A stretch of 64,000 nucleotides of DNA from Rhizophagus irregularis (taxonomy: Eukaryota), in the NCBI RefSeq assembly GCF_026210795.1, contig NC_089435.1, forward strand, positions 4,650,001 to 4,714,000, given 5' to 3'. A program made the translations under genes and the position numbers. The notes under the pieces are model-generated. The model had not been told where the DNA came from. It did no database searches and was given only the letters and a program-made list of their open reading frames with translations. How positions within the stretch are numbered: position 1 is the first letter of the stretch; the number at the start of each line of letters is the position of its first letter. This document shows positions 15,442 to 49,631 of the stretch, one piece after another.

Positions 15442-18400
15442 ATGAGCAAAACAAAACAGTATGAAGTAACCCTTCTGGCCAAGGGAATTATTTCAGAAGA
15501 TTTACACTATGAAATACATGCACGAAATTGATGGAAACCACGCAAATTTGCTCAAACCAACTTTAATCCAATACCTTACCGACTATTTATGTCTGTTAAT
15601 TGTTGTCTTAACAGTAAAAATTTTGCAATAACAATTCTTAATGATGAGCAAACACAAAATCCATGTTTCCGTTGTGTTTGTGATGGTAAAGATTCTGGAA
15701 TTCAAGCGTCAGCGAGTGCAGCTATTAATAACATGTACATACAAATTTTTGGTAATAAAACAACAAAGTATTCAGGATTAATTGTTATGGGATTTGATAA
15801 TGAAGCAATTGTTCGTGAGTTAGTAGCTGATGTTTCATTTATTCCAATATTTATTTGTTTAGATAAAATAATAATTGTGGTTAGTAAAATTGGTGGTTCA
15901 TCTCGTGAAGGATATTATGGTGCCGGTCCAGGATATTTTTCTACACTTATAACAAAATATGCAGGCAAACAATCACTTTTTGTACAATCCATAGAAGATG
16001 AATGTAGTTTAGACATTTATAATGAAGGTGTTAAATTATACCATAATAAGAATACTACACCTAATAAAATTTGGGAAACTATTGATATTCACAAAAAATA
16101 TGATGGAGTGGCTTTATTCGGAATTACTGATCCATATGTTCAACAAAAATTGGAAGAACTGAATAAATTAGAAAAAAGTAAATTAGAAAAGAGTAAAAAT
16201 TTAATCACTTGTACAAGTGATAATTGGGAAAATATTGATATATTGAATCTTATATTTGAGCAAAATATAAAAAAACGTAAAATTGCTACTAGTACATTTT
16301 CAGATTGGTCAAACTTATTTACAAATTGGTATAAACAAACTAATACAATAATTCAATTTCCCACAATTTTATTTCAAATTTATCCAAATAATTACCAATT
16401 CTAAGAAAAAGAATTAAACGCGTGGTGAGCAATGTTTTGTGCCGCTGGTTGTACCAATATCACTCCACTTGTAAAAAAAAGCATATAATTGAATTTTGGA
16501 CAAAAGCATCAGATCCTTCGTCTGATAGGGATAATCTAGTAAAACTTTTTGAATCAGAAATGTTATTGGTAATGGAAAAGAAATCTCAACCTAATAGCGA
16601 AAGTGAAAAAATTTGGGAAAGTTTACAAAAAGCTTTAGAAGCAAATAAAAGAGGAGTTGATGGAAAAGTTAGGATTCTTTCAATAATTGCCAAAAATTTT
16701 ACATATAAAAAACTCAATGAGAAGTTTGGGGTAAAGTTAAAAATTATATTTATTGAATTTATTATAAATAAATCTTAAAAATAACTAAATACTTACATAT
16801 AGGTAGGAAATAATATAATTAATTCTGCACGAAAATATGCAAGACTTAATGGACCAGGAGCACCAAGCCTAATAAAACCCAAAAGAACTGTTAAACAAAT
16901 GTCTGAAATTAAAGAAAAGCAATTTTTAATGTTTTTTCAAGATCGAAGTATAGTTACGCAAAGTTCTTACCAGGTGGATAAGAATGGATCACCAATATTA
17001 TATATGCGTGATCAAAAAATCAAACTGTGGAAAAAATTTGAAGAAACTTTTCCTAATGGTATGAAAAAGACATCATTTTTGGGCCGATTAGCAAATTGTA
17101 ATAATATCAAATATCGGAATGATATAGGTGGACTTTGCCTTACCTGTAATGAATAAGGTTGCTTGTCTAAACCTCTTCAAAATCCTACGATTAGTTTCGT
17201 CAAAATTTTACTATAGATTTATTATAGTTTCGGCAGAGTTTCGGCAGTTTCAGCATTTATAATAAGTTTCGGCAGTTTCGCTATTCTCCAAAATTTCGCC
17301 AGTTTTTTAATATAACTTTAATATAGTTTCAGCAGAATTTCGCTTTTCGGTGAAACGCCATCTTGCCTAAACCCCTAGGTTTCGGCAAGCAACCTTAGTA
17401 ATGAATATGGCTATACTCCATTTGAGTCTTTAATAGCTATTGCACACAATATATTTTCATAAAAAGATCAGTTAGTAAGTAAAATTTTTAATAAACAAAT
17501 TATTTTAGTTTGAAAATATTATAATTTACCTTTTATTAATATTTTTAAAATAATGCATTGCGAAAAATTGACACTTTAAAGCGTCACTTGCATCGTGGTT
17601 ATGAAAGAGAATTGGCAGTTAATGCTGATGGTACAACACAACATAATCCCTGTATTTCTCATTGTTTACCATATGCCTTTGGAAAATGTTTGGAAAAACA
17701 TAAGTCACGATGCTCAGAGTGTGATAAATTTTTTGAATTTTTTGAATTTATGCACCCACATGTAAATGAAGATCAAGCAGCTTTTTTAGAAGAAATAAAA
17801 GAACATTTGCAGTATTTCTTAGCCCATACAACACGAAAAGTATACTTGAATGCTCAATTTAAAGCTACATTGGCCAATCTTGATGAGAATGGTGCATTAT
17901 TTATTGCTGATTACAAGATGAGAATTTTGCCAAGATCTGCTAGGGAAACTAAAGCAGAATTTTTTGGCAAACGTGGCTGGACTCTTCACACAATCCTAGT
18001 TTTTACAAAAAAAAATAATTGTGCAGAGTTAGATATACGAGCTTATGATCACTGGTCAACTGACACCAAGCAGGATGCTTGGTTTACTGCCTCCTCATTT
18101 GAAGCTGTTTTTGAAACAATAAAAAATAAACCAAAATGGATTAGAATAATTTCAGATAATGGGGCACATTACCATTCATCAGTACTTATGGCCATAGTTT
18201 CACATTGGAATGAATGGTATCAAATTGAGGTTTGTGATTGGCAATTTCTTGAACTGGGTGAAGCTAAAACAACCATTGATTTCCATCACGCTGCAGTAAG
18301 TACTATTGTTATAAAGCTATTGCAATAAATTTTACATTAAAATTACCTTTTTTTTAGATTTCTCATTCAATCAAACGATATATTCGGATTGGATATGATA

Positions 18401-21282: not shown

Positions 21283-22200
21283 TTGAGAGCTTTCTCTTAT
21301 ATTATTTACTATTTTCTTTGGTCCATTTTCTTTATGGGACATCAGAAAGAAAAATTCTCTCGTTCCTGTTCCAAACAAAAAACTAGTAATCTAACCTCAC
21401 CTTCCTTTTTCCCTTCTATTGCCCATGATGAAAAATGGTGCAAACTTGCTGACAAGTTAATGGACTCTCAACTTGCTTATATCAAATTGCCCCTAGTTAA
21501 TAGGTGGCAAAGTGTTATTACTTATGAAAAAAATTTGAAGGATTATGAATCCTCATATATTCCCTTGTATCTTCCTGATAATAAAGTCCTCACTACTTAT
21601 CGTCTTGCGTTAGCAGACTCTTCTCGTTATCTTAAATTTTTTCATTTACGTGACCAAAAATATTTGAAATTTGTGGATTTTTGGCGTACCCCCTCTGAAA
21701 GATCAACATTGAAAGATTTCAGAAATTCTTTATTTTCAGAATTTATGCCTCCTACAGTTGTTCCTGCATTTATGCCTGATGATCATCAAGATGACTTTTC
21801 TGATATGACGCTAGATCCTGTCCTTCAATCTGTAATACAAAACCCTGCTTTTCAACAGATTTGGCCTATAGGACCAGATCCATATACTTTTGACTCTGAT
21901 GGTGAAATGGACGAATTTCTTCTCCCTGACTATCCTATTCAACTTATTCCAATTGATTATAAAAATAATGCTACTCAGTGTCACTCTTCTCGTCCATTGA
22001 ATTATGATGATGATGATAGTGATCTCTCTACTTATGTCCCTTCCACTTCAATTAGCGTTGCTCAACTAATGTCAGATACTGGGCTTTCTATTGCTACAGC
22101 TACTCGTCTTGTTGCTAAACTTCCTGCTTTACATGCTGCTGCTAAAGCTATATTTGCTCTACCCATTGTACCCCTTCTAGACAGATCAATTCTTTTATAG
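21283..22200 (+). CDS. Hypothetical protein in the repeat-delimited segment (likely start ATG 21334)
   Basis: 305-codon ORF in AT-rich DNA with a pyrimidine-rich coding strand. No recognisable domain. Confidence 0.5.
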   Translation: MRAFSYIIYYFLWSIFFMGHQKEKFSRSCSKQKTSNLTSPSFFPSIAHDEKWCKLADKLMDSQLAYIKLPLVNRWQSVITYEKNLKDYESSYIPLYLPDNKVLTTYRLALADSSRYLKFFHLRDQKYLKFVDFWRTPSERSTLKDFRNSLFSEFMPPTVVPAFMPDDHQDDFSDMTLDPVLQSVIQNPAFQQIWPIGPDPYTFDSDGEMDEFLLPDYPIQLIPIDYKNNATQCHSSRPLNYDDDDSDLSTYVPSTSISVAQLMSDTGLSIATATRLVAKLPALHAAAKAIFALPIVPLLDRSILL

Positions 22201-22524
22201 ATTTTGACAAACTTCTCTCAGTTTACGATGTTCCTCTTTTGCCATGTACTTTTGACGCATCTACGTTGAATGATGATTCTGAGTACGAACCGTATGATTC
22301 TGATGATGACTTGCTTTTCTCCTTTTCATCTTTCGATGACTCTTCTTTTATGAGTCCTCTCTTAAAATCTATAATCTATTGTTTCTTTTTCGATCACCTT
22401 TCCTCTATTTTGCTTTGATCTTGGTCCTTTGGTAGCAGTTTCTACTATAATGTTTTCAAATGATATTCCTGAATATAAACCCTTTTTTATCAGCTTCTTT
22501 TTTGATTTTTCAAAATTTGAACGT

Positions 22525-24159
22525 TGTAGCCATAGATACTGAAGTAATCGCATAATATGGAGGAATAATATGGAATAAAAGATCAAACGATAGAAAGTCA
22601 CATGATTGGATAAAATTAACTGGAAAGGATAAACTTTTAGGAGAAGGAATGATCTACATGATGTAATGTTTATTAAATGATTAACGGAGAACCAATAGAT
22701 CAAGTAGGAAGTTGATCGATGTGGCTTAGCAACCAGTTTATCAAGTTCAACAATAGGAACAATTAGGAGGAGTAATCATAAGCCACAAATGATAAATCAT
22801 ATAAAAAGGAAGGATAGCGAATTAAAGGAACAAAAAAATAGGAACATGTAAAATATTGATGAACTGCAGCCGCAGTAGAAGAATAGCTGACGAGACGCAG
22901 TAGAAAAGATAGCACAGCCACAAAAGATGGATTTTTACGATATAATATTTGAAAGATTATTTTATTTTAAAGAAAAGATAGCACAGCCACAAAAGATGGA
23001 TCTTTACGATATAATATTTGAAAGATTATTTTATTTTAAAGAAAAGATAGCACAGCCACAAAAGATGGATCTTTACGATATAATTAAGGTTGCTTGTCTA
23101 AACCTCTTCAAAATCCTACGATTAGTTTCGTCAAAATTTTACTATAGATTTATTATAGTTTCGGCAGAGTTTCGGCAGTTTCGGCATTTATAATAAGTTT
23201 TGGCAGTTTCGCCTTTCTCCAAAGTTTCGCCAGTTTTTTAATATAACTTTAATATAGTTTCGGCAGAATTTCGCTTTTCGGCAAAACGCCATCTTGCCTA
23301 AACCCCTAGGTTTCGGCAAGCAACCTTAGATATAATATTTGAAAGATTATCTTATTTTAAAGAAAAGATAGCACAGCCACAAAAGATGGATCTTTACGAT
23401 ATAATATTTGAAAGATTATTTTATTTTAAAGAAAAGATAGCACAGCCACAAAAGATGGATTATATCTTTACGACATAATATTTGAAAGATTATTTTGAAG
23501 AAAAGATAGCGTATTAAAATAGTATAATATATTAGAAAAGATAATATATAAATAGCATATAAGATAGCGCATAAAAGGGAACACATAACATAAAATATTA
23601 GAAAGAAATAAGAAGTAAGAAAAGAAAGAATAAGAAAGTTAGTTTAAATAGGAGCGGAATGGGAGGTGAATTCCACAGTCGTCAGATACGATGTAAAACT
23701 TTAAGTAAATTAGTTAGTTGTGAATTTTATGAAGAATAAATAAAATACCTTTTATATGAAAATTAATTGTTTCGATTGTTTTTGTTACTATTTTCTTATG
23801 ATGAAAAAGTAATTTTGTTCAATTAACTGTTAGTAAAGCGTAATGTTATTTTAAAGGTAATAGGTTCGCCCTAAACTTTATTGTAATGTTCGCTTAATTA
23901 ATTTTAATTGGATAAATTCATGGTGAATTTAATGTCATAGCAAGAATTATGAAATAAATAAAATATAAACTTTCATAAAGAGAACTATCGTAAATTTGAA
24001 AGAAGAGAAAGGATGAAATATCGCGGCGAGAGCTATCGCAATTTGAAAGTTAAGTAGTAATAAAACTAAACCAAGCAAGAATATTAATATTTCGTGGAGA
24101 ACGAATATACGTTAAAGCAGGGAAGCTTGTTTACCGCCGGGTGGCAGACGGGGATGACA
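22525..24159 (+). repeat. 5' LTR (1383 bp plus a 252-bp MITE insertion)
   Basis: TGTAGCC...TGACA, near-identical to 34508-35890. Contains 69-bp tandem repeats. Confidence 0.97.
23085..23328 (+). mobile_element. 244-bp hAT-type MITE, copy 2, present in the 5' LTR only
   Basis: Same TIR as copy 1. TSD GATATAAT. Confidence 0.95.
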
Positions 24160-24162
24160 ATT

Positions 24163-24178
24163 TGGTGCATGCTCCGAG
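24163..24178 (+). promoter_or_regulatory. Primer-binding site, probably for tRNA-Gly
   Basis: TGGTGCATGCTCCGAG lies 3 nt after the LTR. Its complement ...GCATGCACCA resembles a tRNA-Gly 3' end. Confidence 0.75.
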
Positions 24179-24729
24179 AAAGGAAATGTTGACTTTGCGT
24201 CGACATTTTGACTATCTTCTTATAGTCAAGTACCTATGCGGTATTAAGAAGGAATCGGTCAACAACTAAGTGAATTGATCACTCGCGAAGGAAAAGATCG
24301 TTCTGATCATGGTACCGACGTGGTATTCCGAAGAATCTGAACTCAGAAAAAGAGGTGTTAGAATTAAAATATAATATTGGGAAAAAAGGTTGTAAGTACC
24401 TGAAAAACTTTAAAATGGGAACGGGCGAAATAGCGATATTGTACACCTACCTTAGGAATTATAAAAAGAAGGATGCGGTGATATGATGGAATATAATGAA
24501 CTCGTTTCAAAGTAATAGATTTGTTACAAGAATATCCGGAAAAGTATTGTAGTAAGTCACAAAAGTTGTCGTCTTTAAAGTTTTTGCGCTAATAATTGTA
24601 AAACCAAGAAATTAAGGAAGCCCTCGTAAGATGTTGTATTCTGGGAGGGGCACCATTGTATTTTGCAGATGCCAGAAGTTCCTGGGGATACAATGTTGTA
24701 ACGAAAAGCTGACGAGTAAACTATAAACT

Positions 24730-24824
24730 CAAGGGTTACGTGGGAACCTGTTACCAAAACACAAGGGTTGCATGGGAACCTATTTAAAACACAAGGGTTA
24801 CGTGGGAACCTATTACAAAAACAC
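24730..24824 (+). repeat. Three ~30-bp tandem repeats in the retroelement leader
   Basis: Unit CAAGGGTTACGTGGGAACCT.TT..AAAACA. Confidence 0.85.
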
Positions 24825-25190
24825 CGGCTGTGAATATAACTTCTTCAGATGGGAATCGAAATAATTGGACTCAGACGTGAGTGGAACATCTCCCTACTGA
24901 AAGCATTTTGAAAATGCGTAATTGAATTCACAAGGCAAAAAGAGAAACTATCATCGTGAGTATAACTTCTTCAGATAAAACTGAAAGCATTTAGGAAAAT
25001 GCGCAATTGAACTCACGAAAAGACGATGAACGTTATGGAATAATGCGAAATTTAGGAATATTTGCTGGTCAAATGATGAAATGTGAGTAACAAACCTTGA
25101 AACTACTATACTTCATTGGGAAGGTAAAGGCAAGCCAAGTATAGGTTATTAAATTGTAAAAGATAATAAATAAGAAGAAACACCGTTAAA

Positions 25191-25310
25191 TAAGTATAAA
25201 TGCGTGTGTCGCATAAGTATAAATGCGTGTGTCGCATAAGTATAGATGCGTGTGTCGCATAAGTGAAGATGCGTGTGTCGCATAAAGTATAATATGTTGT
25301 GTGTCGACAT
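25191..25310 (+). repeat. 23-bp tandem repeat, four copies plus one degenerate
   Basis: Unit TAAGTATAAATGCGTGTGTCGCA. Confidence 0.9.
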
Positions 25311-25957
25311 AATGGTTATAATAAGAGTTAGTACAAGATTAAACAAAGAAGATATTTTGCGTAATATTAAATATATAGATGTAAAGATTACATATATAAT
25401 GAAAAAGAACTAAAAATTCACGAACTTTAGAAGTTATGAGAATTTTGAAGTTCGTGAAATGCGAAAATTATAAATTTTGATGATAAAAGAAAATTTTGAG
25501 GCGCAGTAAAAACTTAGAAAATTTTTGAAATTTTTAGAATGCGCAGTAAAAACCTCCGCAGTCTGAGGAGATTGTGGACTTAGAATAATTTTTGAAATTT
25601 TAGGGCGCAGCAAAAATTAATGGTGAAATATGGCGCAGTAAATATATATATGAAGTTATGAAAGATAAAAATAGCAGAAGAAACTTGTGAAAATCAAAAA
25701 AAAAAAAGAGGATTTAAAGATTGAAAGATTAACATAAGAATATTATGAATAAGTAAAAGATTTAGAAAAAATAAGTTGTTAAATGAATATTCATAATGAA
25801 AGAAAGATTATACATTCAATATAGGTAATAGGAAAGGACAATATAGTAAAGGATGGTTAGAAGATCAAAATAGAAGCGATAAAAATGATATATAAGAGAG
25901 CGAAATTTCAATTTGAATTCTGGATGAATATTTATAATAATTTAATTAGAGTATACG

Positions 25958-28378
25958 ATGGAATGGTATTATCAATGGGAAAGTGAATATAGGACACATA
26001 AAGAAGAACATGAGTTAAGAACAGGAGAATTAGATGAATGTTTAAATTGTGAATTATGTCATCCAATAGTAGATGAACCAATAGTATTCAAGAAATTTTG
26101 GGACGCATTATTTAAGTTCGAAGATACAATAATAATATATAATAATGTAACGATCAAGGGAGTAATAGATTTATTAAGTATGAATAATTAGGAAAGAGAA
26201 GATACAATACATAAAGGAAAATGTAGGGACATAATGGATAGAATAACAGAATCAATAAGATATAGAATACAACCAAAAATGAAAGAAAAAGGATTACGAA
26301 CAATTATATTAGTAATTGTAAGAGATTGTATTGAAGGAGATTTAGAGAATGAAGTATTTGATAGATTAATTGGAAATCCTGAATTAATAGAACACAAATA
26401 TATTTTGGAAGATTGGGATGTTGAAAGAAGGTTTAAAAAATTTTGGCAATGGTACAAGATCACATCGAAAGAAGTTAAACCATTACGAGTAAAGATGGGA
26501 GCAATAAAGACATTCAGGGAATTACTTTATGAAGAAGAAGGAATAGCTACGAATGAGGAGAAAGTAAAAGAATTAATGTCCAATATGGAATATGGGAATA
26601 TAGACATAGAAAATGTTCACGAATATCACAGGAATATGGTACAAAAGATAATAAGAATATTTATAGATACTAGGGGCTTTACAAAAGAACCAGAAGATTC
26701 AGAAAGTGAAGATAGCTTAGAAAGTTATGAAATGAAAAAGAATTTTAATGGGAGTTTATATCTTAGATTTGAAAGATTCAGGTACTGGTGGAATGACAAA
26801 TATGAAGGTAAACGAATACATACATATCATGAAAATGATTCATTAGGATGGTTCGAGAAGATGTTATCTGAAGGAGAGAATTTGCAAAAAGATACTGTAA
26901 AGAAACTGACAGATAGTATGACATTTAAGGATAGCGAAGATATGTATGAAAAAGATCCTATTATAACAAGAATAGATGATGGAGTAATAGAATGGATTGT
27001 AACGGATTTAAAAGTAGTGATGGAAAGAACACAAAAATTTAAGTTAGTGGAGATAGAGCAAGGGGAAGATAATGAAATATATGATTCTGAAGAAGAAATA
27101 GAAATAATAGTAAAAGACAAAACGTGGGAGTTAAATGAAATAAGAATAGGATTAAGACAACTGATAGTGGATCCGAAAGAAAAACTCATCAGGGAAATGA
27201 TGAAATTTGGAATAAAAGAAAAGATAGAAACGGGAGTACTGTTAACATATGATTTTATAAGATATTATATTTTTCAGGAAAGGAGATTCGATAAGATTGA
27301 GGACATAAAGGAATGGATAGATTTGAGTACAAAAATATGTGGTAGATGCAATAAACAGAAATTAGATTATGTGATATCAGAAGAAGATGGCAGATGTGAA
27401 GAATGTAACCAGGAAATACAGGAAGATGAACAAGATGAATTAACAGAATTAAAAAACAACTTAGAAAAGTTAGGATACAAAATAGATGTATCGGAAATTC
27501 AAAGAATAAAGAATTTTGGAGTTAATAATCGAATAATAGTAACAGAAGAATTCATAGAAAGGTATATAAGAATGATAGAATTAGAAGATAGAGAGTTAAG
27601 AAAAGAGGTGCACAAATGGTTAAATGAGAACACAACTTGGTGCGAAAGATGTGAAATAAGATGGATGAATGATATGTTTAGATTAGGAGGAACTGTATGC
27701 AAAGATTGTGAAGAAGAAGATATTGATGAAATTGATGATCGGGTAAAAAGATTACAGAAGATTTTTGAAGATATTGGAGTAATGATGATTGAAGAGGAAT
27801 TGTTAAGATTAACTAGTATGGGATATACAGATGGAGAAATTTTAGATAAAGAATTTATCGAAATCTTTCAAGAAAATAAAAATGAGTCAGAAAAAGAACT
27901 AAAGAAAAAGTTAGATAAGTTGTTGAAAGAACAAGCAGGAGTAATAGAAAGTGAAGAAAGTGGTGAAAAGAGTGATAATGAAGAATCAGAAGAAGATAAT
28001 ACGGATAATTCAGAAAAGATTGGAGAAATATTAAGTCCAGAAGAATATGAAATATGGGATGGAAGTGATGAAGATTTTGAAGAAGAAGAGTCTGAAAATG
28101 AAATCGAAAATGTTATAAATACAGGAGGTTTTGGTCTGAATCAAAATTCAGATTCGAATAGTTCATTAAATTTTAAAAATTCTGACACAGAAAGTGAAAT
28201 ATCTGATTACAATTTACAAGAATTATTTCAAGAGAATATAGTAAATATGGCAAATGAAGCACAAATAAGAAGAATAATGGAGAATGCTATGGAATTGGCA
28301 CCAAATGCATTAGATAATGCGTTAGGAGCAGGACAGACTTTGGCGGATAGGATTCAGACTGCAGGAATGGGGGAATAG
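25958..28378 (+). CDS. Acidic CxxC-containing N-terminal extension (ORF0) running into the start of Gag; one in-frame stop
   Basis: ORFs 25958-26191 and 26234-28378 share a frame, split by TAG at 26189. Motifs CLNCELC, CGRC..CEEC and CERC..CKDC. Ends at a G-run frameshift just before the Gag core. Confidence 0.75.
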
Positions 28379-28383
28379 TAGGT

Positions 28384-29871
28384 ATGCCAACTTTTAGTGG
28401 AAAAGAGGATGAAGATATTAATGATTGGATTAGACAATTTGAGATAGCATTTACAGTAAGTGGACGACCAGAAGGAAATGTTGGAGGAGGTGTATGTAGA
28501 CAAAATAAGGCAAACATAGCTATAACTTGTTTAAGAGGAATTGCATTACAATGGTATAATGAGGAAAAAGAAAGGGTAGCAGCTAATTTAGTGAATTGGT
28601 GTGATCATAATGAGGACAGGAATTTAAAAGGAAGATTAATCGACAGATTTACTAGGAATGATGTTCAAAGAAGAAAGATGTCAGAATTAACAAGAATTAA
28701 ACAGGGAACAAATGAAAGTGTCGAAGAATATACTAGAAGATTTAGGTCAATATTAAGAGTTGCAACTAGAGGTCATGCGTTAGAGGATTTATATCAAGTG
28801 AATTATTTTATTCAAGGGTTAGACGCCATGATAGGTTATCATGTTAGGAAAAGTAATCCGACGAATCTGAATGATGCAGTTAACGAAGCAAAAAGTGAAG
28901 AGAAAGCGAGAGATGAGTTGATGATGAAAACAACAGGGTTGGATATGAAACGAGTAGGACAGGAGAAAAACATGGAAGAAATTTTGAAAGAAGAGACAAA
29001 TAAGTATAAAGGAATGAATCCAATTGCGAAAGAGTTACAAAATAAAGAAGTTAAAAGTGATGAATGGGATGAGTTAATTAATGGAATGAAAAGGTTGGAA
29101 GCACATGTAATGCAGAGAAATGAAGCATATGTAATCCAAAGGAATGGGAATGATAGGAGACCGATCGGAAATAATAATGTCCAAAGAAATAATATGAACT
29201 GGGATAGAATGACTTGTTATACATGTGGAAGAAAAGGACATACTTCTAGAGTTTGTAGGGAAGGTCAAAGAAGATCATATGGAGGAAATAATAAAGGGTC
29301 ATATAGCCAAAATAATCAAGTTAATTACTTTGATGAAGAATATTATGGTGGAGGATATAATGTGTATAATATGGAATATAATGATGAATATGATGGATAT
29401 AATGAGGGTGATGGATATGATAACTATAATAATAATGGATTTGATGGATACGAAGTGAATAACTATGAAGATGAGGAAAGATACGATATGTTTCCAGTAC
29501 CACCTAGAAAGAGTGAAAGAAATAAAGACAAGGTTATGAACGATGAAAGAGATAGAAGAAGAAATGCACAATGGCAAGGACAACAACAAAAAGCACAGGG
29601 GAATAATAAGAGAGGTTTTACGAAAGAACAATTACAGAAAGGATATGAAACTAGAAAGAATAATAATAGGTGTCACAATTGTGGACAACAAGGACATTTT
29701 GCTAGAGAATGTACAAACGAGAAAGTGAAGTTAAATCGAGATATACCAAACGTTGGAGATTTTGATCCATTCGAACAATTTGTAAATTCAAGTGTACCAA
29801 TTAATTGGGGACAAATGATGAATGAAAGACCAGAAGTAAGGAAGAAATTATTAAATGGTTTGAGATATTGA
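28384..29871 (+). CDS. gag: Gag (capsid-like domain plus two CCHC zinc knuckles)
   Basis: PTFSG..EDINDWI, IKQG.NESVEEY..RF, CYTCGRKGHTSRVC and CHNCGQQGHFAREC. Confidence 0.93.
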   Translation: MPTFSGKEDEDINDWIRQFEIAFTVSGRPEGNVGGGVCRQNKANIAITCLRGIALQWYNEEKERVAANLVNWCDHNEDRNLKGRLIDRFTRNDVQRRKMSELTRIKQGTNESVEEYTRRFRSILRVATRGHALEDLYQVNYFIQGLDAMIGYHVRKSNPTNLNDAVNEAKSEEKARDELMMKTTGLDMKRVGQEKNMEEILKEETNKYKGMNPIAKELQNKEVKSDEWDELINGMKRLEAHVMQRNEAYVIQRNGNDRRPIGNNNVQRNNMNWDRMTCYTCGRKGHTSRVCREGQRRSYGGNNKGSYSQNNQVNYFDEEYYGGGYNVYNMEYNDEYDGYNEGDGYDNYNNNGFDGYEVNNYEDEERYDMFPVPPRKSERNKDKVMNDERDRRRNAQWQGQQQKAQGNNKRGFTKEQLQKGYETRKNNNRCHNCGQQGHFARECTNEKVKLNRDIPNVGDFDPFEQFVNSSVPINWGQMMNERPEVRKKLLNGLRY

Positions 29872-29900
29872 CTACACTCGGGGGAATTGAAGAATATTAA

Positions 29901-30476
29901 TCAGAAAGAAGAAAATCACAAGCAACAAGATGTAATATAATAATTGAAGGAAAAATGATTAGAGCATCAGTTGATACAGGAGCAGGACCTTCAGTAATAA
30001 CGAATGAACTGAGAAAAGAATTAAATATACCAATAACGAGGAAAAGTAATGTCGTATTAACAATAGCAGATGGAAATAACATAGCTTCATTAGGAAGAGT
30101 GGAAATTAGAATAGAAATTGATGAAAATTTAGAAATACCTTTAGAGTTCGAAGTAATTGACTCGAGAAGAAAAGATTTGATATTAGGAACTGATTTATTA
30201 AGATATGGGATAATAAATATGAAAGAAGGTCTGTTAACAATAGAATGGGATAATGGAATATATGAAATACCAATTGATTTTAGAGGAAAGAAAAATGTTG
30301 AATTTGAGGAGTCAGAGAATAGGGGTGAATTTAATGAAGATCCAAAGAATATAGATGATATAGATGGCAATTCTAGTGAAGAGTCAGAGGGTGAAGATGA
30401 ATATGAGGAGATGGAAAAAGAAGAGTTGTTGTCGATTGTAAAAACTGATAGAGAAAAGAGAGATGAGGAAAAATGA
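29901..30476 (+). CDS. Retroviral-type aspartic protease
   Basis: Active site ASVDTGA, flap IADG, and LILGTD. Confidence 0.92.
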   Translation, partial: SERRKSQATRCNIIIEGKMIRASVDTGAGPSVITNELRKELNIPITRKSNVVLTIADGNNIASLGRVEIRIEIDENLEIPLEFEVIDSRRKDLILGTDLLRYGIINMKEGLLTIEWDNGIYEIPIDFRGKKNVEFEESENRGEFNEDPKNIDDIDGNSSEESEGEDEYEEMEKEELLSIVKTDREKRDEEK

Positions 30477-32806
30477 ATGGTCTTGGCTTTCTGAATGAAG
30501 GAGAGACGGTAAAGATGCTAAATGAGAGCAAAGAAGAAAAATTTGAAAAGAAAACACATCTGGGAGAAATGAGCGATGAGGAGAGAATAGCATTTAAAAA
30601 ATTGATAAGGGAATATGAAGATATATTTGAATATGACGAAGAGAAACTGGGAAGGATAAATACAGTTAAACATGAGATAATAATTGAAGAAAATCAAGGA
30701 CCAATAGCACAAAAGAGATATAAAGAAACTGATGAAAAAGGAAAGTTTATAAAGAAAGAAATTGAACAATTGTTAAAGATGGGGAAGATAAGAGAATCAT
30801 GGAGTAATTGGGCATCTCCAGTAACATTAGCAGGAAAGAAAACTGGAAATTATAGATTTTGTATAGATTATAGAAAGCTAAATAATGTGACAAAGTCAGA
30901 TGAATATCCTTTACCCCGGATAGACGAATTGTTAGAAAAATTTAGAAAGGGAAGTTGGTTCACAAGTTTGGACTTAGTAGCGGGATATCATCAAGTGGAA
31001 ATGGCAGAAGAAGATAAAGAGAAAACAGCATTCATTTGTTCACAAGGATTATATGAATACAATGTTATGCCATTTGGATTGAAGAATGCACCAGGAACAT
31101 TTCAGAGATTAATGGATAAAATATTAAAGGAATATATAGGAGAATTTGTTACAGTGTATTTAGATGATATAATGATTTATTCAGAAGATTTTGAGGGACA
31201 TATAGAACATGTAGATAAAGTACTGAGTAAATTGAGAGAGAATAATATGATTGTAAAGTTGAAGAAATGTCAGTTTGGATTGAGAAATATAAATTTCTTA
31301 GGGCATATAGTAGGAAGAGATGGATTGCGACCGGATAAAGAGAAAGTTGAGAAGATAGAAAATATGAGGAGGCCGAAAACTGTTACAGAAGTAAGATCAT
31401 TTTTAGGATTATATTCATATTATAGGAGATTTATAAAAGGTTTTTCGAAAATAGCAAAACCTTTGCTTAACTTAACGAGAAAGAATGAAAAGTTTGAATG
31501 GAAAGAAGAACAACAAAAAGCATTTGACGTATTGAGGACAAAATTGACAGAAAATCCAATTTTAGTATATCCGGACTTCAGTAGAGAATTTATATTAATA
31601 ACTGATGGATCTAAGATAGGATTAGGAGCAGTGTTAGCTCAAATGAATGAAGAAAATAAAGAGGTTGTAATAGCTTACGCAAGTAGGAGTACAGTTGGGG
31701 CAGAAAAGAATTATCCACCAACAGAATTGGAATGCTTAGCAGTATTTTGGGGAATACAACATTTTCAGAAATATTTGGTAGGAAGGAAATTTATAGTGAT
31801 AACAGATCACGCAGCATTAAAAGGATTAACAGATGGAAAGGAACAAACGGGAAGGAGAGCAAGATGGGTAATGAAATTACAACAATTTGACTTTAAAATA
31901 GTACATAGAAGTGGAAAGAAAATTAAAAATGCAGATGGATTATCAAGACTGAGATTTAAAGAAAAAGAAACAGAAAGGAACGAGAATCAAGAAATAACAA
32001 AAATAGAAAGTAATAAGGGGAAATTGAGATATATCAAATTTAGGAATAAATGGTATAATGCTAAAAGATTTAAAGGAAGATGGGATGATGAAAAATATTT
32101 TACCGATAAAGAAGCAATACTTTTGAATTTGGAGGAAAAGACAGAAAAAGAATTATTAGAGAAATTGGGAAGAGAAAATAAGCCACAAGTTATTATAATC
32201 GACGGAGTGGATGGATTAGGAAAAACAAGTATAGTACAAAATTTAATTAAAGAGTGGGAAAAACAAGGATTAAAAGTAAGATTTAATACATTCAAAAGGA
32301 GAAGAAAAGACAAAGGTGAATTTTATGAATCAAAGTTAGAAACAGAATGGAAATTTAGAAAGGAAGTAGTAGAACAAATAAACAGAAGAATGTTAGAATA
32401 TGATGGAGATACAGATATAATAATTCTAGACAAATCGCCATATTGCGAATATTATTATCAGAAGACGAAAAGTTTCAACAGAGGATTAATTATTCCACAT
32501 GGGAACTATGAGATGGAAAAAGAAATATTCAGATTAAAAGAAACAATAGATGAATCAATAGTGATATTTTTGGAAAAAGATGGCAATGTATGTTGAAAAA
32601 ATTATATTGGAAGAGAAACGAAGAAAATGGAGAAATCGTCATACCCAACATTAAAGAAAAACGAATATTTGGACATGGTTAAAATGTTTAAGGAAAACCA
32701 GGATGTATACAAAGATACCAAAAGATACAGTCAAATTGAAGTTAGGAACGACGATAGTAGTTGGAGAAAAGTATATAAGGAGTTAGAAAAACACCAAAGA
32801 GCTTAG
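30473..32806 (+). CDS. pol: Reverse transcriptase-RNase H fused to a P-loop nucleoside/nucleotide kinase-like domain; premature TGA at 32594
   Basis: RT: RFCIDYRKLN, MPFGLKNAP, YLDD. RNaseH: TDGS..GLGAVL, ELE, TDH, NADGLSR. Then IIIDGVDGLGKTS and LDKSPYCE. The frame stays open from 32597 to 32806. Confidence 0.93.
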
Positions 32807-32821
32807 AATTATATTTTCAAA

Positions 32822-33163
32822 ATGGTATTAGTAAATCGTTATGAGAATTGGTTTCTTACATATCGAGTAAAGGTCGACAAGATATGGAAAGTAACTATAA
32901 AAGAAGAAGGGAACAAAACAATTATCCGTTTAAGGATTGAAGAGGGAGAAAACTTCATACTAGTAGATGTACACATTATAATAAGACTAAAAGAGAAAAA
33001 GGTGAAATTAATTATGGAAGATAAAGACAATATGATAATAGAAGAAAGATTAATGGAAAAAGGATTAGGATGGGTACGATCTAAATTGATTATAGGAAAT
33101 GAAAAATATATAAGAAGGATAGAAATACCAAGGATCAAAAATAAATCGAGAGATAAAAATTAA
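32822..33163 (+). CDS. Hypothetical 113-aa protein between pol and the integrase
   Basis: ATG-started ORF 15 nt after the kinase stop, with the same purine-rich bias as pol. Confidence 0.55.
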   Translation: MVLVNRYENWFLTYRVKVDKIWKVTIKEEGNKTIIRLRIEEGENFILVDVHIIIRLKEKKVKLIMEDKDNMIIEERLMEKGLGWVRSKLIIGNEKYIRRIEIPRIKNKSRDKN

Positions 33164-33289
33164 AAAATATATATGGAACAGTTATCACGACGCTTTATTT
33201 TTACAATACCTTAATTTTTACAACACTTCAACCCTTTACAACATTTCAACCTTTTACAACACTTTAGCTTTTAGAATTACAACATAGAC

Positions 33290-34477
33290 ATGGAAGAGGA
33301 AGAATATAATAAGATAGCGAGAAATATCAACAATGAACGGGAATATGAAATTATAGGAGGATTAATTTACAAAATAAAAGATGGGAAAAGACTAAGAGTG
33401 ATAAGAAAATACGAATTTGAAGGATTAATGTACATAGCTCACGATCATGAATTATCAGGACATTTTGGAATAGATGCAACGTATAATAGGATCAAAGATA
33501 AATATTATTGGAAAGGAATGAGAAAAGATGTGGAAGCTTATGTCAAATCATGTAATAATTGTCAGAGAAGAGGGAAACCAATAGGAAAACATGAACTGAA
33601 TGTAATCAAAGTTATAGAACCATTTTATCAAATTGGGATTGATGTAGTGGGACCATTACCAGTAACAAAGAGAAATAATAGATATATAGTTACAGCGATG
33701 GATTATTTTACAAAATGGCCTGAAGCAAAGGCATTGGAAACAGCAGATGCTAAGGAAATTGCAAGATTTATTTATGAAGATATAATATGTAGGCATGGAT
33801 GTCCAAAGAAGATATTGAGTGATAGAGGAAGTCATTTCAATAATAAATTAGTGAAATCATTAATGGAGGAATTTCAGATAAAACATAACTTTTCGACGCC
33901 TTATCATCCAAAAACTAATGGGTTAATAGAAAGATTTAATAAGACATTATGTGAATCATTAGCAAAGCTAAGTAATATCGAAGATTGGGATTTGAAAGTA
34001 CCAGGAGTATTGTTCGCGTATCGAACTAAAAGGAATGATTCAACGAAAATGGAACCAGGATATTTAATATATGGGAGACAAATGAAGACATTATTAGATT
34101 TAGAAGATAAGGAAATTACCATGGCAGAGAGAGTTAATGAGTTGATCGAAGGATTACCAAACATTAGGAATCAAGCTAAAGAAAATGTCAGGAAATCTCA
34201 GGAAAAACAAAAATCGTACCATGATAAAAAGAATAGAATAAAGCAGAAATTACAAATCAAAGATAAAGTACTATATTATGACGTAGCAAAAGAGAAACAA
34301 TGGTCTGAAAAGTTAGAAGAAAAATGGAAAGGACCTTATTATGTACATGAGATAATTTCTAAAGGATCATACAGAATTAAAACTATGGAAGGGAAGATAT
34401 TGAAAACACCAGTAAATGGTGAATTACTGAAAGAATATATTGATAGGACAAATTTTGAAGTAATAGTTCGAATTTGA
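33290..34477 (+). CDS. Integrase (HHCC, DDE, GPY/F) in a stand-alone ORF
   Basis: H..GHFG..CNNCQR, IGIDVVGP, SDRGSHF, YHPKTNGLIERFN and WKGPY. No chromodomain. Confidence 0.95.
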   Translation: MEEEEYNKIARNINNEREYEIIGGLIYKIKDGKRLRVIRKYEFEGLMYIAHDHELSGHFGIDATYNRIKDKYYWKGMRKDVEAYVKSCNNCQRRGKPIGKHELNVIKVIEPFYQIGIDVVGPLPVTKRNNRYIVTAMDYFTKWPEAKALETADAKEIARFIYEDIICRHGCPKKILSDRGSHFNNKLVKSLMEEFQIKHNFSTPYHPKTNGLIERFNKTLCESLAKLSNIEDWDLKVPGVLFAYRTKRNDSTKMEPGYLIYGRQMKTLLDLEDKEITMAERVNELIEGLPNIRNQAKENVRKSQEKQKSYHDKKNRIKQKLQIKDKVLYYDVAKEKQWSEKLEEKWKGPYYVHEIISKGSYRIKTMEGKILKTPVNGELLKEYIDRTNFEVIVRI

Positions 34478-34493
34478 TGGGACTCAAATTTTA

Positions 34494-34506
34494 GGTGGGG
34501 GGCAAA
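34494..34506 (+). promoter_or_regulatory. Polypurine tract
   Basis: AGGTGGGGGCAAA immediately before the 3' LTR. Confidence 0.65.
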
Positions 34507-34507
34507 C

Positions 34508-35890
34508 TGTAGCCATAGATACTGAAGTAATCGCATAATATGGAGGAATAATATGGAATAAAAGATCAAACGATAGAAAGTCACATGATTGGATAAAATT
34601 AACCGGAAAGGATAAACTTTTAGGAGAAGGAATGATCTACATGATGTAATGTTTATTAAATGATTAACGGAGAACCAATAGATCAAGTAGGGAGTTGATC
34701 GATGTGGTTTAGCAACCAGTTTATCAAGTTCAACAATAGGAACAATTAGGAGGAGTAATCATAAGCCACAAATGATAAATCATATAAAAAGGAAGGATAG
34801 CAAATTAAAGGAACAAAAAAATAGGAACATGTAAAATATTGATGAACTGCAGCCGCAGTAGAAGAATAGCTAACGAGACGCAGTAGAAAAGATAGCACAG
34901 CCACAAAAGATGGATCTTTACGATATAATATTTGAAAGATTATTTTATTTTAAAGAAAAGATAGCACAGCCACAAAAGATGGATCTTTACGATATAATAT
35001 TTGAAAGATTATTTTATTTTAAAGAAAAGATAGCACAGCCACAAAAGATGGATCTTTACGATATAATATTTGAAAGATTATCTTATTTTAAAGAAAAGAT
35101 AGCACAGCCACAAAAGATGGATCTTTACGATATAATATTTGAAAGATTATTTTATTTTAAAGAAAAGATAGCACAGCCACAAAAGATGGATTATATCTTT
35201 ACGACATAATATTTGAAAGATTATTTTGAAGAAAAGATAGCGTATTAAAATAGTATAACATATTAGAAAAGATAATATATAAATAGCATATAAGATAGCG
35301 CATAAAAGGGAACACATAACATAAAATATTAGAAAGAAATAAGAAGTAAGAAAAGAAAGAATAAGAAAGTTGGTTTAAATAGGAGCGGAATGGGAGGTGA
35401 ATTCCACAGTCGTCAGATACGATGTAAAACTTTAAGTAAATTAGTTAGTTGTGAATTTTATGAAGAATAAATAAAATACCTTTTATATGAAAATTAATTG
35501 TTTCGATTGTTTTTGTTACTATTTTCTTATGATGAAAAAGTAATTTTGTTCAATTAACTGTTAGTAAAGCGTAATGTTATTTTAAAGGTAATAGGTTCGC
35601 CCTAAACTTTATTGTAATGTTCGCTTAATTAATTTTAATTGGATAAATTCATGGTGAATTTAATGTCATAGCAAGAATTATGAAATGAATAAAATATAAA
35701 CTTTCGTAAAGAGAACTATCGTAAATTTGAAAGAAGAGAAAGGATGAAATATCGTGGCGAGAGCTATCGCAATTTGAAAGTTAAGTAGTAATAAAACTAA
35801 ACCAAGCAAGAATATTAATGTTTCGTGGAGAACGAATATACGTTAAAGCAGGGAAGCTTGTTTACCGCCGGGTGGCAGACGGGGGTGACA
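34508..35890 (+). repeat. 3' LTR (1383 bp)
   Basis: TGTAGCC...TGACA, with just over four copies of a 69-bp unit at ~34885-35240. Confidence 0.97.
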
Positions 35891-37320
35891 ACGTCATTAT
35901 AAATGGAAAATTTATCGTTCCTCTCTTCTTCCTGTCATGATATTTATCAGTTGGATATTTCTCACCTGTTTTCTTTGGTTTCGGCTTCACTTAAGAATTA
36001 TGGATAGTCTTCTTAAACTGACCTTTTTTTGTTCGATTAATAGGTTTATTAACCTATTTCCTTCTTGGCCTGGTTAGATTACTTTTTTTTTTTAATTTTG
36101 TTTGTTTGGGTCATTTGTTTGATTTGTAGTTGTGTAATTATTTAAGGCGTGTGGTATTTCTTAGTTTGCCATCCCCTTCTATATGATCTATAGTTTTATT
36201 TTATAATTCTCCCTTCTTTATTATTTTGCTTTATTTACAACTATTTTATTTTCTTTTTGCTTTTCTTCGTTAAGAATTTTCTGTAGGTAATATTTTTCTG
36301 GTTTTTCTAACCTTTTTGTAGCTTTTGCTTTTATTACCTTTTATTGGTTTTGTTAGTTTCAGTTTCTTTTTATAAGAAACTATTTAGTCACCTCACAGTG
36401 ATTTTATATTAATCTGGAGGATGTAGTGCCTTTATTAATGATTGTTTATAGTTTTTTTTAGAGCTTTAACCTTCGTTTTGTTTTGTACTATGAGATTATT
36501 CTTTATTTCTTTATTTGTTTTTTTTTTTGAATTTATATTTCTTTTTGATTTGTATATTTCTATAAAAATAAATAAAAAACGTCATAAAGACCATTTGCAT
36601 AACAGTAAAAGGATAAAATTAAAAACTAAAACAACTCTCTCCCGTTACTCTTATAACAATATTGTTACAAAAGAAATTTTGATATATCCATATATTGTTT
36701 ATACCTATAATTATTTCTTCTCTTTTTTTTCTCTTGCTCAGGCCGATGACCTCTTCCTACGACTTCTCAACCTTGAGTTGGGAAGAAGTTTTTTTTAAAC
36801 TTCACGAGGTTGAGGACCTCTGCGCTAAGTGTATTCTCAAACAAAAAACTTTATTAGCCCATTTCAACTCTCTTTCTGATAGCTCTTCCGCTAAATCATG
36901 TGTTTACTTGGCTTTTGGCCCTCTCCACCAACTAGACGACTCTCTTTTTGAACAAAAATGCCTTCTATACTTACGTTTAGACTTTCTTTCGTTTACTGCA
37001 AATTCAAAAAATGATATCACAATTCTCTCTGCTAACGATCATCCATCATATGATGATTCAGTAAATAATGATCCATCTCCTCTTCCATTAACTGTTTGGA
37101 CTTCTAACCATGAGGCTAATCCTAATGTTATCTTAGATTTATGCATCCCTTCTTTACAACGTACCAATCATTTTTCAGTTGCTATATTTGGCGCACTCCT
37201 AAATTTCTTTGTAAATACTGACGTCTTTTCTATGATTTCCCTGCATCTTTCAAATGTGCACAGAAATTTAAAAAGAATTTATTTTTTACACGTTTGGTCT
37301 TGTCCTCTTCTACAATACGT

Positions 37321-38629
37321 TGTCACCCCCGTCTGCCACCCGGCGGTAAACAAGGTTCCCTGCTTCTGTTATATGTGCTCTCAGCGAAACATTAACATTC
37401 TTGCTTGGTTTAGTTTTATTACTACTTAACTTTCAAATTGCGATAGCTCTCGCCACGATATTTCATCCATTATCTTCTTTCAAAATACGATAGTTCTCTT
37501 TACAAAAGTTTATATTTTATTCATTTCATAATTCTTGTTATGACATTAAATTCACCATGAATTTGTCCAATTAAAATTAATTAAGCGAACATTACAGTAA
37601 AGTTTAGGGCGAACCTATTACCTTTAAAATAACATTACGCTTTACTAACAATTAATTAAACAAAATTACTTTTTCATCATAAGAAAATAGTAACAAAAAC
37701 AATCGAAACAATTAATTTTCATATAAAGGGTATTTTATTTATTCTTCATAAAATTCACAATTAACTAATTTACTTAAAGTTTTACATCGTATCTGACGAC
37801 TGTGGAATTCACCTCCCATCCCGCTCCTATTTAAACCAACTTTCTTATTCTTTCTTTTCCTACTTCTTATTTCTTTCTAATATTTTATATGTTATCTTTT
37901 ATGCGCTATCTTATATGCTATTTTATATGTTATCTTTTCTAATATGTTATACTATTTTAATATGCTATCTTTTCTTTAAAATAATCTTTCGCATATTATG
38001 TCGTAAAGATATAATCCATCTTTTGTGGCTGTGCTATCTTTTCTTTAAAATGAAATAATCTTTCAAATATTATATCGTAAAGATCCATCTTTTGTGGCTG
38101 TGCTATCTTTTCTTTAAAATAAAATAATCTTTCAAATATTATATCGTAAAGATCCATCTTTTGTGGCTGTGCTATCTTTTCTTTAAAATAAAATAATCTT
38201 TCAAATATTATATCATAAAGATCCATCTTTTGTGGCTGTGCTATCTTTTCTACTGCGTCTCGTCAGCTATTCTTCTACTGCGGCTGCAGTTCATCAATAT
38301 TTTACATGTTCCTATTTTTTTTGTTCCTTTAATTCGCTATCCTTCCTTTTTATATGATTTATCATTTGTGGCTTATGATTACTCCTCCTAATTGTTCCTA
38401 TTGTTGAACTTGATAAACTTGTTGCTAAGCCACATCGATCAACTCCCCACTTGATCTATTGGTTCTCCGTTAATCATTTAATAAACATTACATCATGTAG
38501 ATCATTCCTTCTCCTAAAAGTTTATCCTTTCCGGTTAATTTCATCCAATCATGTGACTTTCTATCGTTTGATCTTTTATTCCATATTATTCCTCCATATT
38601 ATACGATTACTTCAGTATCTATGGCTACA
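37321..38629 (-). mobile_element. Solo LTR of the same Gypsy family, inverted
   Basis: Reverse complement of the LTR, 1309 bp, with one fewer 69-bp unit. TSD ACGT (37317-37320, 38630-38633). Confidence 0.96.
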
Positions 38630-38766
38630 ACGTACATCAGTTTGACTCTTGTCACGTCCTCTCCGATCTGTTGATTTATTTCAAAAAATTTTTTCTGATT
38701 CTTCTATAATTACTCCTCATATTTCAGTGACGTTTGACACTGCTGATAGTGATATTAGCGCTCTTC

Positions 38767-39210
38767 CAGGACCGGGAAAACCTATAATGGAGGTCACTGT
38801 AGTACCCGGCACACTAGTAAAATCCATTGAATTTTTTATATATACAATTTTTAATGAAGCCAAAATGTGTGGATTAAACTTATCTGTTTAAGTTTAGAGT
38901 TAAATGCATGATTTATACACTCAATTTAGATTTTTATATATTCTGTGTAACACAAAAAGGTGGTTCGCATAATTAGTAAATTTTTTAAAAAGTGGTTCGC
39001 GTTATTATAAAATTTTTTTCGGAAAATTTAATGATCTCAGTTAATATTGATATTAAAAGAATAATTTATGATTCATTTTATTTTTCAGACATTTCTGTAT
39101 GATTTGTTAGATTTTTAGTTTAATTACTTAAGAAAAATTTTTATTAATTTGGGCAAAACCATCATTTTACTATTGTCCGGTGACCTTTATTATAAGTTTT
39201 CCCAGTCCTG
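38767..39210. mobile_element. MITE with a 6-bp TSD
   Basis: 31-bp TIR CAGGAC.GGGAAAAC.TATAAT..AGGTCAC. TSD CTCTTC (38761-38766, 39211-39216). Confidence 0.9.
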
Positions 39211-44169: not shown

Positions 44170-45300
44170 TGAATATCCTATGTATGTAGAAGGTAAATTA
44201 ACTAAAATATTGCTAAATTCTTCTTTGGTTGGCATTGTTTCTTTAAGCAATAAAGTTTTAATATTTTTTTTTCTTCATTTATTATAACTATTATTTTACG
44301 TTTAGGAGCAAGATCTATATCATTTAATTGTTGAAAATTTTCATTAATTGGTACTGAACCAGATGCTGTGCTTTCATTATTTCCCTCAAGTACTTTTCTT
44401 TTTTGTAAAGATACTATTGATTTATTTATCAATTTTATATCTGTTTTAACTACTTTTAAATGTTATCTTTCTTTTGTATTTATTTGTTCAGTTTAATAAC
44501 TTCTTGACAATAAACTTCCTTTATTCTTTTTAATCCTTTATTATAAGCATTATTTAACTTTTCCAATTTTTTTTGAATTAATCATGATTAAGGTTGCTTG
44601 TCTAAACCTCTTCAAAATCCTACGATTAGTTTCATCAAAATTTTACTATAGATTTATTATAGTTTTGGCAGAGTTTTGGCAGTTTTGGCATTTATAATAA
44701 GTTTCGGCAGTTTCGCCTTTCTCCAAAGTTTCGCCAGTTTTTTAATATAACTTTAATATAGTTTCGGCAGAATTTCACTTTTCGGCGAAACGCCATCTTG
44801 CCTAAACTCCTAGGTTTCAGCAAGCAACCTTAATCATGATGGTGAATTATTTTTAAAAACCTTGTATTCTATATAATTACTTATTTCAAATATTTTTATT
44901 AGGTTTTCTACCAATTTATATAGAGAGTCAATTCTATTATCAACTTTACGATTTTTTCTATTATAATTATTAGAATCTAAAATTCATTTAATAATACATC
45001 AATTCTCTCCTTTTCTTCCTAAGTTGCCCTAATTTGAAGATTTAGATTTTCTTGATTAATGACATTTTCAATTATATTTTTTTTAACATACCTAACTCCA
45101 TATATTTCTAAAGTTTTATCAAATTCTGAATAGTGACCTTTTTTTGTTAAATTAATAGAAGCATAATATTGAAGTTTTTTTTCAAGTTGAGGTACTTTTT
45201 AAGGATTAACAAAAATGAGCCACAGATGTCATATAGTTATTTTTGCTAATAGCTGGAAAAAGAGGAGCGAAAGCTGTTAGACTATCTTTAGAATCATCAT
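44170..45300 (-). pseudogene. Decayed coding remnant, possibly the C-terminus of an Academ-like transposase
   Basis: Manual translation gives SLTAFAPLFPAISKNNYMTSVAHF/..YYASINLTKKGHYSEFDKTLEIYGVRYVKKNI, with stops, frameshifts and a MITE insertion. The family call is tentative. Confidence 0.45.
44589..44832 (+). mobile_element. 244-bp hAT-type MITE, copy 3
   Basis: Same TIR. TSD ATCATGAT. Confidence 0.95.
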
Positions 45301-48900: not shown

Positions 48901-49387
48901 AATTATTATTCCTACACACAGCCTTTTTAGTGACACATGGATTAATATTGTTAAAGATGTAGTTAAAAAAAGAGTTAAAATAGACAAAAATTATTTACAA
49001 GTACAACGTTTAAGCAAGATCCAAAATAGCATAGAAAAACGTTGCAACATTATATACTCAGATATTCCTAAATGGCTACTTTCCACACAAGATGTTGTTA
49101 AGGAGCACATTATTATTGATTGAGCAGTAATATCCAACGAGAATGAAAGTGTTAAACTAGCGCTTGATCCTAATACAATTAGAACCTATACAAAAGATAC
49201 TTTTGCAGGAATTTTACAAAAACACAATACTAAATCGATAGAGCAAGACATTTTCTGGAACAATATATATAGGCCAAAAGGTAAATTTACTGAATGTATA
49301 GCTAATTTAATGGATGAGATAATGTTAGAAGAATGGCAGCAAACACTTGAACAGGTGAACATAAACTCAGTGCCAGGTCCTTCAGGC

Positions 49388-49631
49388 TAAGGTTGCTTGC
49401 CGAAACCTAGGGGTTTAGGCAAGATGGCATTTCGCCGAAAAGCGAAATTCTGCCAAAACTATATTAAAGTTATATTAAAAAACTGGCGAAACTTTGGAGA
49501 AAGGCGAAACTGCCGAAACTTATTATAAATGCCGAAACTGCCAAAACTCTGCCAAAACTATAATAAATCTATAGTAAAATTTTGACGAAACTAATCGTAG
49601 GATTTTGAAGAGGTTTAGACAAGCAACCTTA
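49388..49631 (-). mobile_element. 244-bp hAT-type MITE, copy 4 (inverted), inside the LINE RT region
   Basis: Same TIR. TSD CTTCAGG(C/T). Confidence 0.95.

Follow-up and report, generated by a model that had tools for sequence, protein, structure and literature searches.

A conserved accessory gene for a predicted kinase between RNase H and integrase in a Ty3/Gypsy retrotransposon lineage of Glomeraceae

The 64-kb stretch of Rhizophagus irregularis DNA analysed here (the window) encloses a complete 13.4-kb Ty3/Gypsy LTR element whose pol region contains, downstream of RNase H, a domain with the predicted P-loop kinase fold of the deoxynucleoside kinases (dNK) and thymidylate kinases (TMPK). 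A Ty3/Gypsy lineage of the Glomeraceae retains this kinase as a conserved accessory gene; it is real and apparently undescribed, and falls within the known theme of retroelements with captured nucleotide-metabolism enzymes. From sequence profiles and the modelled structure we consider it probable, with moderate confidence, that the domain is a type II (bacterial/phage-like) dNMP kinase, most likely for dTMP, which would raise the supply of dTTP for reverse transcription.

The element has two LTRs with TG...CA ends, a target-site duplication and a polypurine tract (Table 1), and a Pfam scan returns the Ty3/Gypsy domain order of gag, protease (PR), reverse transcriptase (RT), RNase H (RH) and integrase (IN). 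RT, RH and IN usually share one Pol frame in this group; the window element departs from that arrangement in its integrase. The LTRs differ at 13 of 1383 aligned bases, every mismatch being a transition, and the insertion in the 5' LTR belongs to a dispersed repeat family of about 250 bp, with other copies in the window at 17149-17398, 44584-44833 and 49387-49634. A 69-bp tandem repeat in four to five copies lies inside the LTRs (22833-23543, 34816-35274, 37945-38251), and a TGG motif resembling a primer-binding site directly follows the 5' LTR (24160-24184). A solo LTR of the family to which the full element belongs occupies 37321-38629 on the minus strand with ACGT on both flanks; the same four-base target in both insertions suggests sequence-specific integration. 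An Rfam scan of 22000-39000 gave no match.

Table 1. Parts of the kinase-bearing element, in window coordinates
Feature	Position	Strand	Evidence or remark
Target-site duplication ACGT, left	22521..22524	+	
5' LTR, TG...CA ends	22525..24159	+	252-bp insertion at 23077-23328
ORF1	25958..28378	+	Pfam: no family; in-frame TAG 26189-26191
gag (Retrotrans_gag, zf-CCHC)	28351..29871	+	Pfam
Aspartic protease ORF	29901..30476	+	Stop overlaps following ATG (ATGA)
Reverse transcriptase + RNase H	30473..31948	+	RVT_1 E 1.5e-40, RT_RNaseH E 3e-36
Linker, about 77 codons	31949..32179	+	Second half = N-terminal extension of relatives' free-standing kinase ORFs
dNK/TMPK-fold kinase domain	32180..32806	+	Sequence profiles, predicted fold
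Small ORF, 114 codons, between kinase and integrase	32822..33163	+	
Integrase (Integrase_H2C2, rve), separate ORF, own ATG	33290..34477	+	Pfam
Polypurine tract-like run, upstream of 3' LTR	34493..34502	+	Read from sequence
3' LTR	34508..35890	+	LTR comparison
Target-site duplication ACGT, right	35891..35894	+	

ORF1, long and acidic with CxxC pairs, is found upstream of gag in relatives as well. It is likely the long N-terminal portion of Gag, separated by a frameshift in the window copy; its equivalent runs contiguously with gag in the predicted protein P0038. The small ORF after the kinase matches no Pfam family, its predicted model is useless (pLDDT 42), and it is different or absent in related loci. 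The same gap holds small ORFs that differ by family (L002, L003, L004, L005, L009, L013, L014), the start of the one in L013 and L014 resembling an F-box as judged by eye.

In the window copy the frame 30467-32806 stays open past the end of RNase H (NADGLSR from 31928) and through the linker. It then passes the P-loop GVDGLGKT (32204-32227), the basic run KRRR (32294-32305), DKSPYxExxYQ (from 32429), a single premature TGA (32594-32596, read as X in our translation) and the lid Arg (32612-32614) before a terminal TAG at 32806. The features named in a preliminary description of this DNA, among them the Walker A motif at 32204-32227 and the frame end at 32806, lie where it placed them; it had also taken the TGA for a probable mutated TGG. 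The comparison bears this out: the codon is Trp in 89 of the 90 homologs covering it, and base 32596 is G in all mapped contigs of the three sequencing runs, out of four, that cover the position. The TGA is private to the window copy. Because the product stops before the lid, the kinase of this copy is likely inactive, and with the stop in ORF1 and the likely frameshift before gag as further damage, the copy is young yet broken.

The kinase recurs across other copies and species. Among 41 longer homologs, many of them automatic gene models, 40 also match the RT-RNase H or integrase of the window and the remaining one matches its gag; 60 further homologs of near-domain length were found. RT-RNase H upstream and/or integrase downstream accompanies the kinase in 21 of 23 metagenome loci, the other two being short, with the linker only. 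The closest proteins (94-95% over the kinase domain) are annotated in R. irregularis itself, and other named relatives come from R. clarus, R. diaphanus and Glomus cerebriforme. In element-linked homologs the kinase always sits between RT-RNase H and integrase. Its fusion to RNase H, a central claim of the preliminary description, holds in the window and in 5 of the 11 loci with both domains but fails as a general rule, since in the other 6 the kinase has an ORF and an ATG of its own; packaging of the kinase as part of a polyprotein therefore cannot be assumed. Integrase, never in frame with RT, forms a separate ORF in the window and in all 15 loci tested, and in nine of these (L001, L007, L008, L011, L012, L016, L018, L019, L021) its ATG lies -11 to +3 bases from the kinase stop. 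The protease/RT junction of the window element, where ATGA spans 30473-30476, is of the same type. We infer from these overlapping and adjacent stops and starts that the pol ORFs may be translated by a stop-restart mechanism. Two predicted kinase-integrase proteins (P0028, P0033) leave out residues where the two parts meet; as possible gene-model artefacts, they were not counted as fusions. In L008 a coiled-coil-like ORF (L008:3-386), not RNase H, precedes the kinase-integrase pair.

Across copies the domain does not evolve neutrally. Nei-Gojobori estimates from 22 of 24 sequences (two loci were too short) gave a median kinase dN/dS of 0.21, with 227 of 231 pairs yielding a value and none of the 227 at or above 1, figures to be read with synonymous sites near saturation and pairs that are not independent. 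The neighbouring domains gave 0.16 (RT, 6 pairs), 0.18 (RNase H, 35) and 0.17 (integrase, 27), and differences between kinases by codon position were 0.26, 0.18 and 0.44, highest at the third. The kinase is thus under purifying selection, like the domains beside it. These values bear directly on the notion that the kinase is passenger DNA, retained without function for the element. Stops within the domain in 3 of the 22 sequences, namely the window copy and 2 of 21 other loci, are what such DNA might show; a dN/dS like that of RT, RH and IN, the excess of third- over second-position differences, motifs that persist down to about 50% identity and a recombination event (below) that put a kinase in place of a kinase all speak against it. 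The dN/dS values largely refute this reading, and we regard it as highly improbable.

The identities of neighbouring domains do not run in parallel. Compared with L004, the window element shows 94% identity in RNase H but only 64% in the kinase; compared with L005, L007 and L017, it shows 86-90% in integrase and 60-63% in the kinase. Conversely, L001 and L002 match it at 83-84% in the kinase and at 66-69% in RNase H. Loose contig ends from three sequencing runs accumulate at 32195. Taken together, the mismatched identities and this pile-up show that the window family exchanged its kinase for that of another family through recombination, the breakpoint lying immediately upstream of the P-loop.

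An AlphaFold model built from 34 sequences (pLDDT 90, pTM 0.86) places the domain in the dNK/TMPK group, as the preliminary description had proposed. Foldseek returned 197 PDB matches at E<=1e-3, and nearly all of those listed are dNKs, TMPKs or other NMP kinases; the top matches are Giardia and Mycoplasma dAK, human dGK and TMPKs (E 8e-7 to 2e-5), and the viral structures matched are likewise TMPKs and dNKs. A VIA comparison covering Foldseek's 1000 best chains gave Z 15.2 and rmsd 3.0 over 179 aligned residues for S. aureus TMK, and Z 15.3 and rmsd 3.5-3.6 over 196-208 residues for dCK (196) and the cytidine kinase AbmG. Type II TMKs (S. aureus 4f4i, Aquifex 2pbr) and dNKs (human dCK/dGK, Giardia dAK 8puu) thus resemble the modelled kinase along its entire length (Z 15.1-15.3, rmsd 3.0-3.5). 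They differ from it in sequence (11-16% identity, also for AbmG), in the Arg of their DRx/ERS motif, which is Lys in the element kinase, and in the acidic residue after strand 2, which the element kinase lacks. The predicted fold leaves the choice between a dNK and a TMPK substrate unsettled. FtsY, which headed a PDB sequence search, matched over the P-loop region only and was ruled out by the fold search.

Sequence families lean towards TMPK. The window domain matches Pfam Thymidylate_kin at E 7.9e-5 over residues 12-179, with 22.9 bits against a curated cut-off of 27, and PHROG 761 at E 4e-13 over residues 5-199, the name of this family, thymidylate kinase, being an annotation and not a tested function. 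PHROG 761 is matched by 30 of the 34 aligned members; at E<=0.01, Pfam Thymidylate_kin is matched by 27 and Pfam dNK by 6 of the 34. TIGR00041 (dTMP kinase) is matched by 10 of 14, at a score of 29.8 against the NCBIfam cut-off of 83 bits, and three fragments (P0105, P0123, P0127) pass the PF02223 cut-off. The nearest ESM Atlas clusters are phage TMK-like (0.94), and an hhalign comparison reached 98.3% over 133 columns with DKSPYxE falling on DRxxxxE.

Conserved residues add further clues to the substrate. The P-loop follows GxDxxGK[TS] with Asp then Gly (D16 in 79, G17 in 77 and K20 in 80 of 86 homologs); according to PMC3169407, TMPKs are the only NMP kinases with this Asp, and type II TMPKs have their catalytic Arg in the lid. 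The model has a lid helix at 146-153 after strand 4, and R150 and K154 are kept in 88 and 87 of 90 homologs. E95, conserved in 91 of 97, would correspond by motif register to the base-binding Asp133 in the ERS helix of dCK. dCK requires Glu53 as its general base (PMC1802566). We take the place of this residue to be after strand 2, at domain residues 38-47; no Asp or Glu occurs there in the 34 aligned rows, and the general base expected of a dNK would thus be missing. Both the P-loop Asp and the missing acidic residue point to a kinase of dNMPs (dTMP) more than to one of nucleosides.

A salvage kinase acting on free deoxynucleosides would instead give the element a route that, to our knowledge, many fungi lack. 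The leading Foldseek matches, the VIA alignment of dCK over more residues than TMK, and a Pfam dNK match spanning 1-202 of 203 positions in P0063 (E 0.003) fit such an enzyme, whereas the TMPK-type P-loop Asp, the fact that no Asp or Glu follows strand 2 and the higher scores of TMPK families over dNK in sequence scans do not, and we hold it to be unlikely.

A dTMP kinase is itself not free of difficulties. The preliminary description had the order of motifs right, but its D/E-R-S motif lacks the Arg: it reads D-K-S, with Lys in 93 of 98 homologs, at a position where Arg is invariant in the aligned TMPKs and phage kinases. This change, the unexplained KRRR patch and the curated cut-offs, which are mostly missed, count against the assignment, as do the deoxynucleoside kinases in the top Foldseek rows and the VIA tie of dCK and AbmG with TMK. 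The patch itself (K44-R47, after strand 2) is kept in 82-89 of 92 homologs, and nothing corresponds to it in the aligned TMPKs. Its conservation would suit a P-loop kinase with a polyanionic partner seated on KRRR, be it RNA or DNA ends, a tRNA primer or, as in PPK2, a polyphosphate donor, and AM fungi store much polyphosphate. Matches to KTI12, PPK2 and polynucleotide kinase profiles point the same way but are weak and mostly confined to the P-loop, and PPK2 and polynucleotide kinase are absent among the Foldseek and VIA matches listed, which by itself does not exclude them. We consider a polyanionic partner improbable.

A search of 1.84 billion representatives returned 48 matches, the most distant of which (29-38%) include metagenome Nudix-kinase fusions. 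These undescribed proteins (P0116, P0122, P0144, P0146, P0155-P0157) share DK[ST]PYxE; one cluster has 71 members, those listed lying mostly on short contigs, and the Nudix portion best matches MutT/NUDT15. We built a tree from 35 sequences and 181 columns, comprising 15 of about 100 element kinases and no dNK rows (a PF01712 search in five genomes gave three TMPK loci) and rooted on one TMPK; in it the element kinases group with support of 88, the Nudix fusions and P0114 join at 92, and P0133 and one phage kinase at 97, with deeper nodes below 60.

As closest non-element relatives, the Nudix-kinase fusions also raise the possibility that the target is not bulk dTMP but nucleotides that are damaged, modified or part of host defence (dUTP, oxidised or chain-terminating forms), so that the kinase and an ancestral Nudix partner would clean or re-route the pool, perhaps in counter-defence. 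The change from DR to DK and the KRRR patch suggest a shifted substrate, and a lentiviral dUTPase in the same slot serves fidelity, according to the part of PMC4531489 considered. Set against this, a Nudix domain is listed in none of the 41 element-linked longer proteins, a Pfam scan of the window ORF gave no NUDIX match, and a candidate Nudix remnant in the linker, though in the right register, had an hhalign probability of 0.3% and a score reached by 4 of 60 shuffles, and so is not significant. We judge this reading unlikely.

The kinase likely derives from a phage- or bacteria-type gene. Of the sequence families, the PHROG 761 phage kinases match it best, across almost all of the domain, and they share its P-loop type and DxxxxxE register; they differ in being only about 25% identical, in having DR and not DK, in lacking KRRR, in being shorter and in belonging to dsDNA phages. 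L051, a phage gene of PHROG 761, belongs to a dTTP-pathway cluster with genes for dUTPase, thymidylate synthase and dCMP deaminase. Of the capture from a virus or bacterium envisaged in the preliminary description, a prokaryote/phage-type and not host-type sequence family is what we find, but the donor did not emerge: GTDB and IMG/VR scans gave no close relative. In IMG/VR, neither the element alignment nor two Nudix-kinase proteins found a relative, and a Nudix-kinase alignment gave weak matches only; in the 30 of its 44 loci that were translated, five of them in a frame that missed the gene, these proved to be ordinary TMPKs, phage kinases and one PPK2; tblastn of phage genomes reached E 2e-3 at best.

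Returning to the dTMP kinase that we prefer, we hypothesize that ATP would bind the GxDGxGK[TS] loop, and that phosphates would be held by the Lys of DKS, R65 and the lid residues R150 and K154. The element kinase would convert dTMP to dTDP and a host NDP kinase would complete dTTP, on which minus-strand synthesis would draw most because the element RNA is 44% A, an argument that would fit any such element. The enzyme may act in the particle where it is fused and in the cytoplasm where it is a free ORF. It would have been captured once, likely from a phage- or bacteria-type gene and possibly as a Nudix-kinase fusion. Since fungi possess their own TMPK, the benefit of an element kinase is not self-evident. 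In R. irregularis spores, Gypsy elements rank among the TEs with the highest transcript representation (PMC8647823). By analogy with the lentiviral case, dNTPs could be scarce there.

The combined picture, which we advance tentatively and with some doubt, is of an LTR lineage of AM fungi with a dTMP kinase that came from a phage, belonged at one time to a nucleotide-pool module of Nudix and kinase, is essential to the elements and is traded between families; protease, RT, kinase and integrase would be separate stop-restart cistrons, and these would be the first retrotransposons to build, and not just clean, their own DNA precursors. Retroviruses and retrotransposons carry dUTPase, which removes a wrong nucleotide, and genes for precursor-making kinases are otherwise typical of large DNA viruses. 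If our reading is true, the contrast is between cleaning the pool and making DNA precursors, and a dTMP kinase would imply that nucleotide supply limits retrotransposition in these fungi, a question that can be tested on one soluble domain of 210 residues. The kinase further suggests that genes have passed from phages or bacteria into the mobile DNA of a major plant symbiont. It also identifies a lineage whose pol is split in an unusual way, with a reading frame of its own for integrase.

Non-primate lentiviruses (FIV, EIAV, CAEV, visna) carry dUTPase between RT and IN and need it mainly in non-dividing cells (PMC4531489, in part); like the element kinase, it is a nucleotide-metabolism enzyme in the RT-IN slot of a reverse-transcribing element. 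The lentiviral enzyme is a hydrolase of another fold and is processed from Gag-Pol (same portion of PMC4531489), whereas the Rhizophagus-type element has a P-loop kinase, sometimes as a free ORF, and an integrase that is always a separate ORF. The dUTPase-bearing LTR retrotransposons of fungi, rotifers and planarians (PMC2864245, PMC5408684, PMC6431247, each in part) are likewise Ty3/Gypsy-type elements with a captured nucleotide-pool enzyme, but there dUTPase occupies the ends of Pol or lies between PR and RT; "kinase" is absent from the main text of these three sources. DAM-LTR retrotransposons are also eukaryotic LTR elements with a co-opted prokaryote-type enzyme, in their case a methyltransferase (bioRxiv 10.64898/2026.05.21.726589), and the main text contains none of the terms kinase, Nudix, Rhizophagus or Glomer-. 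Term look-up in PMC11075540, PMC8647823, PMC3248453 and PMC13465315 found no such kinase domain. In line with the preliminary description, which knew of no such element, full-text searches listed no paper on a nucleotide kinase in an LTR retrotransposon, with supplements, subscription journals, Repbase and GyDB outside their scope. Some JGI and UniRef records do bear the automatic label "thymidylate kinase".
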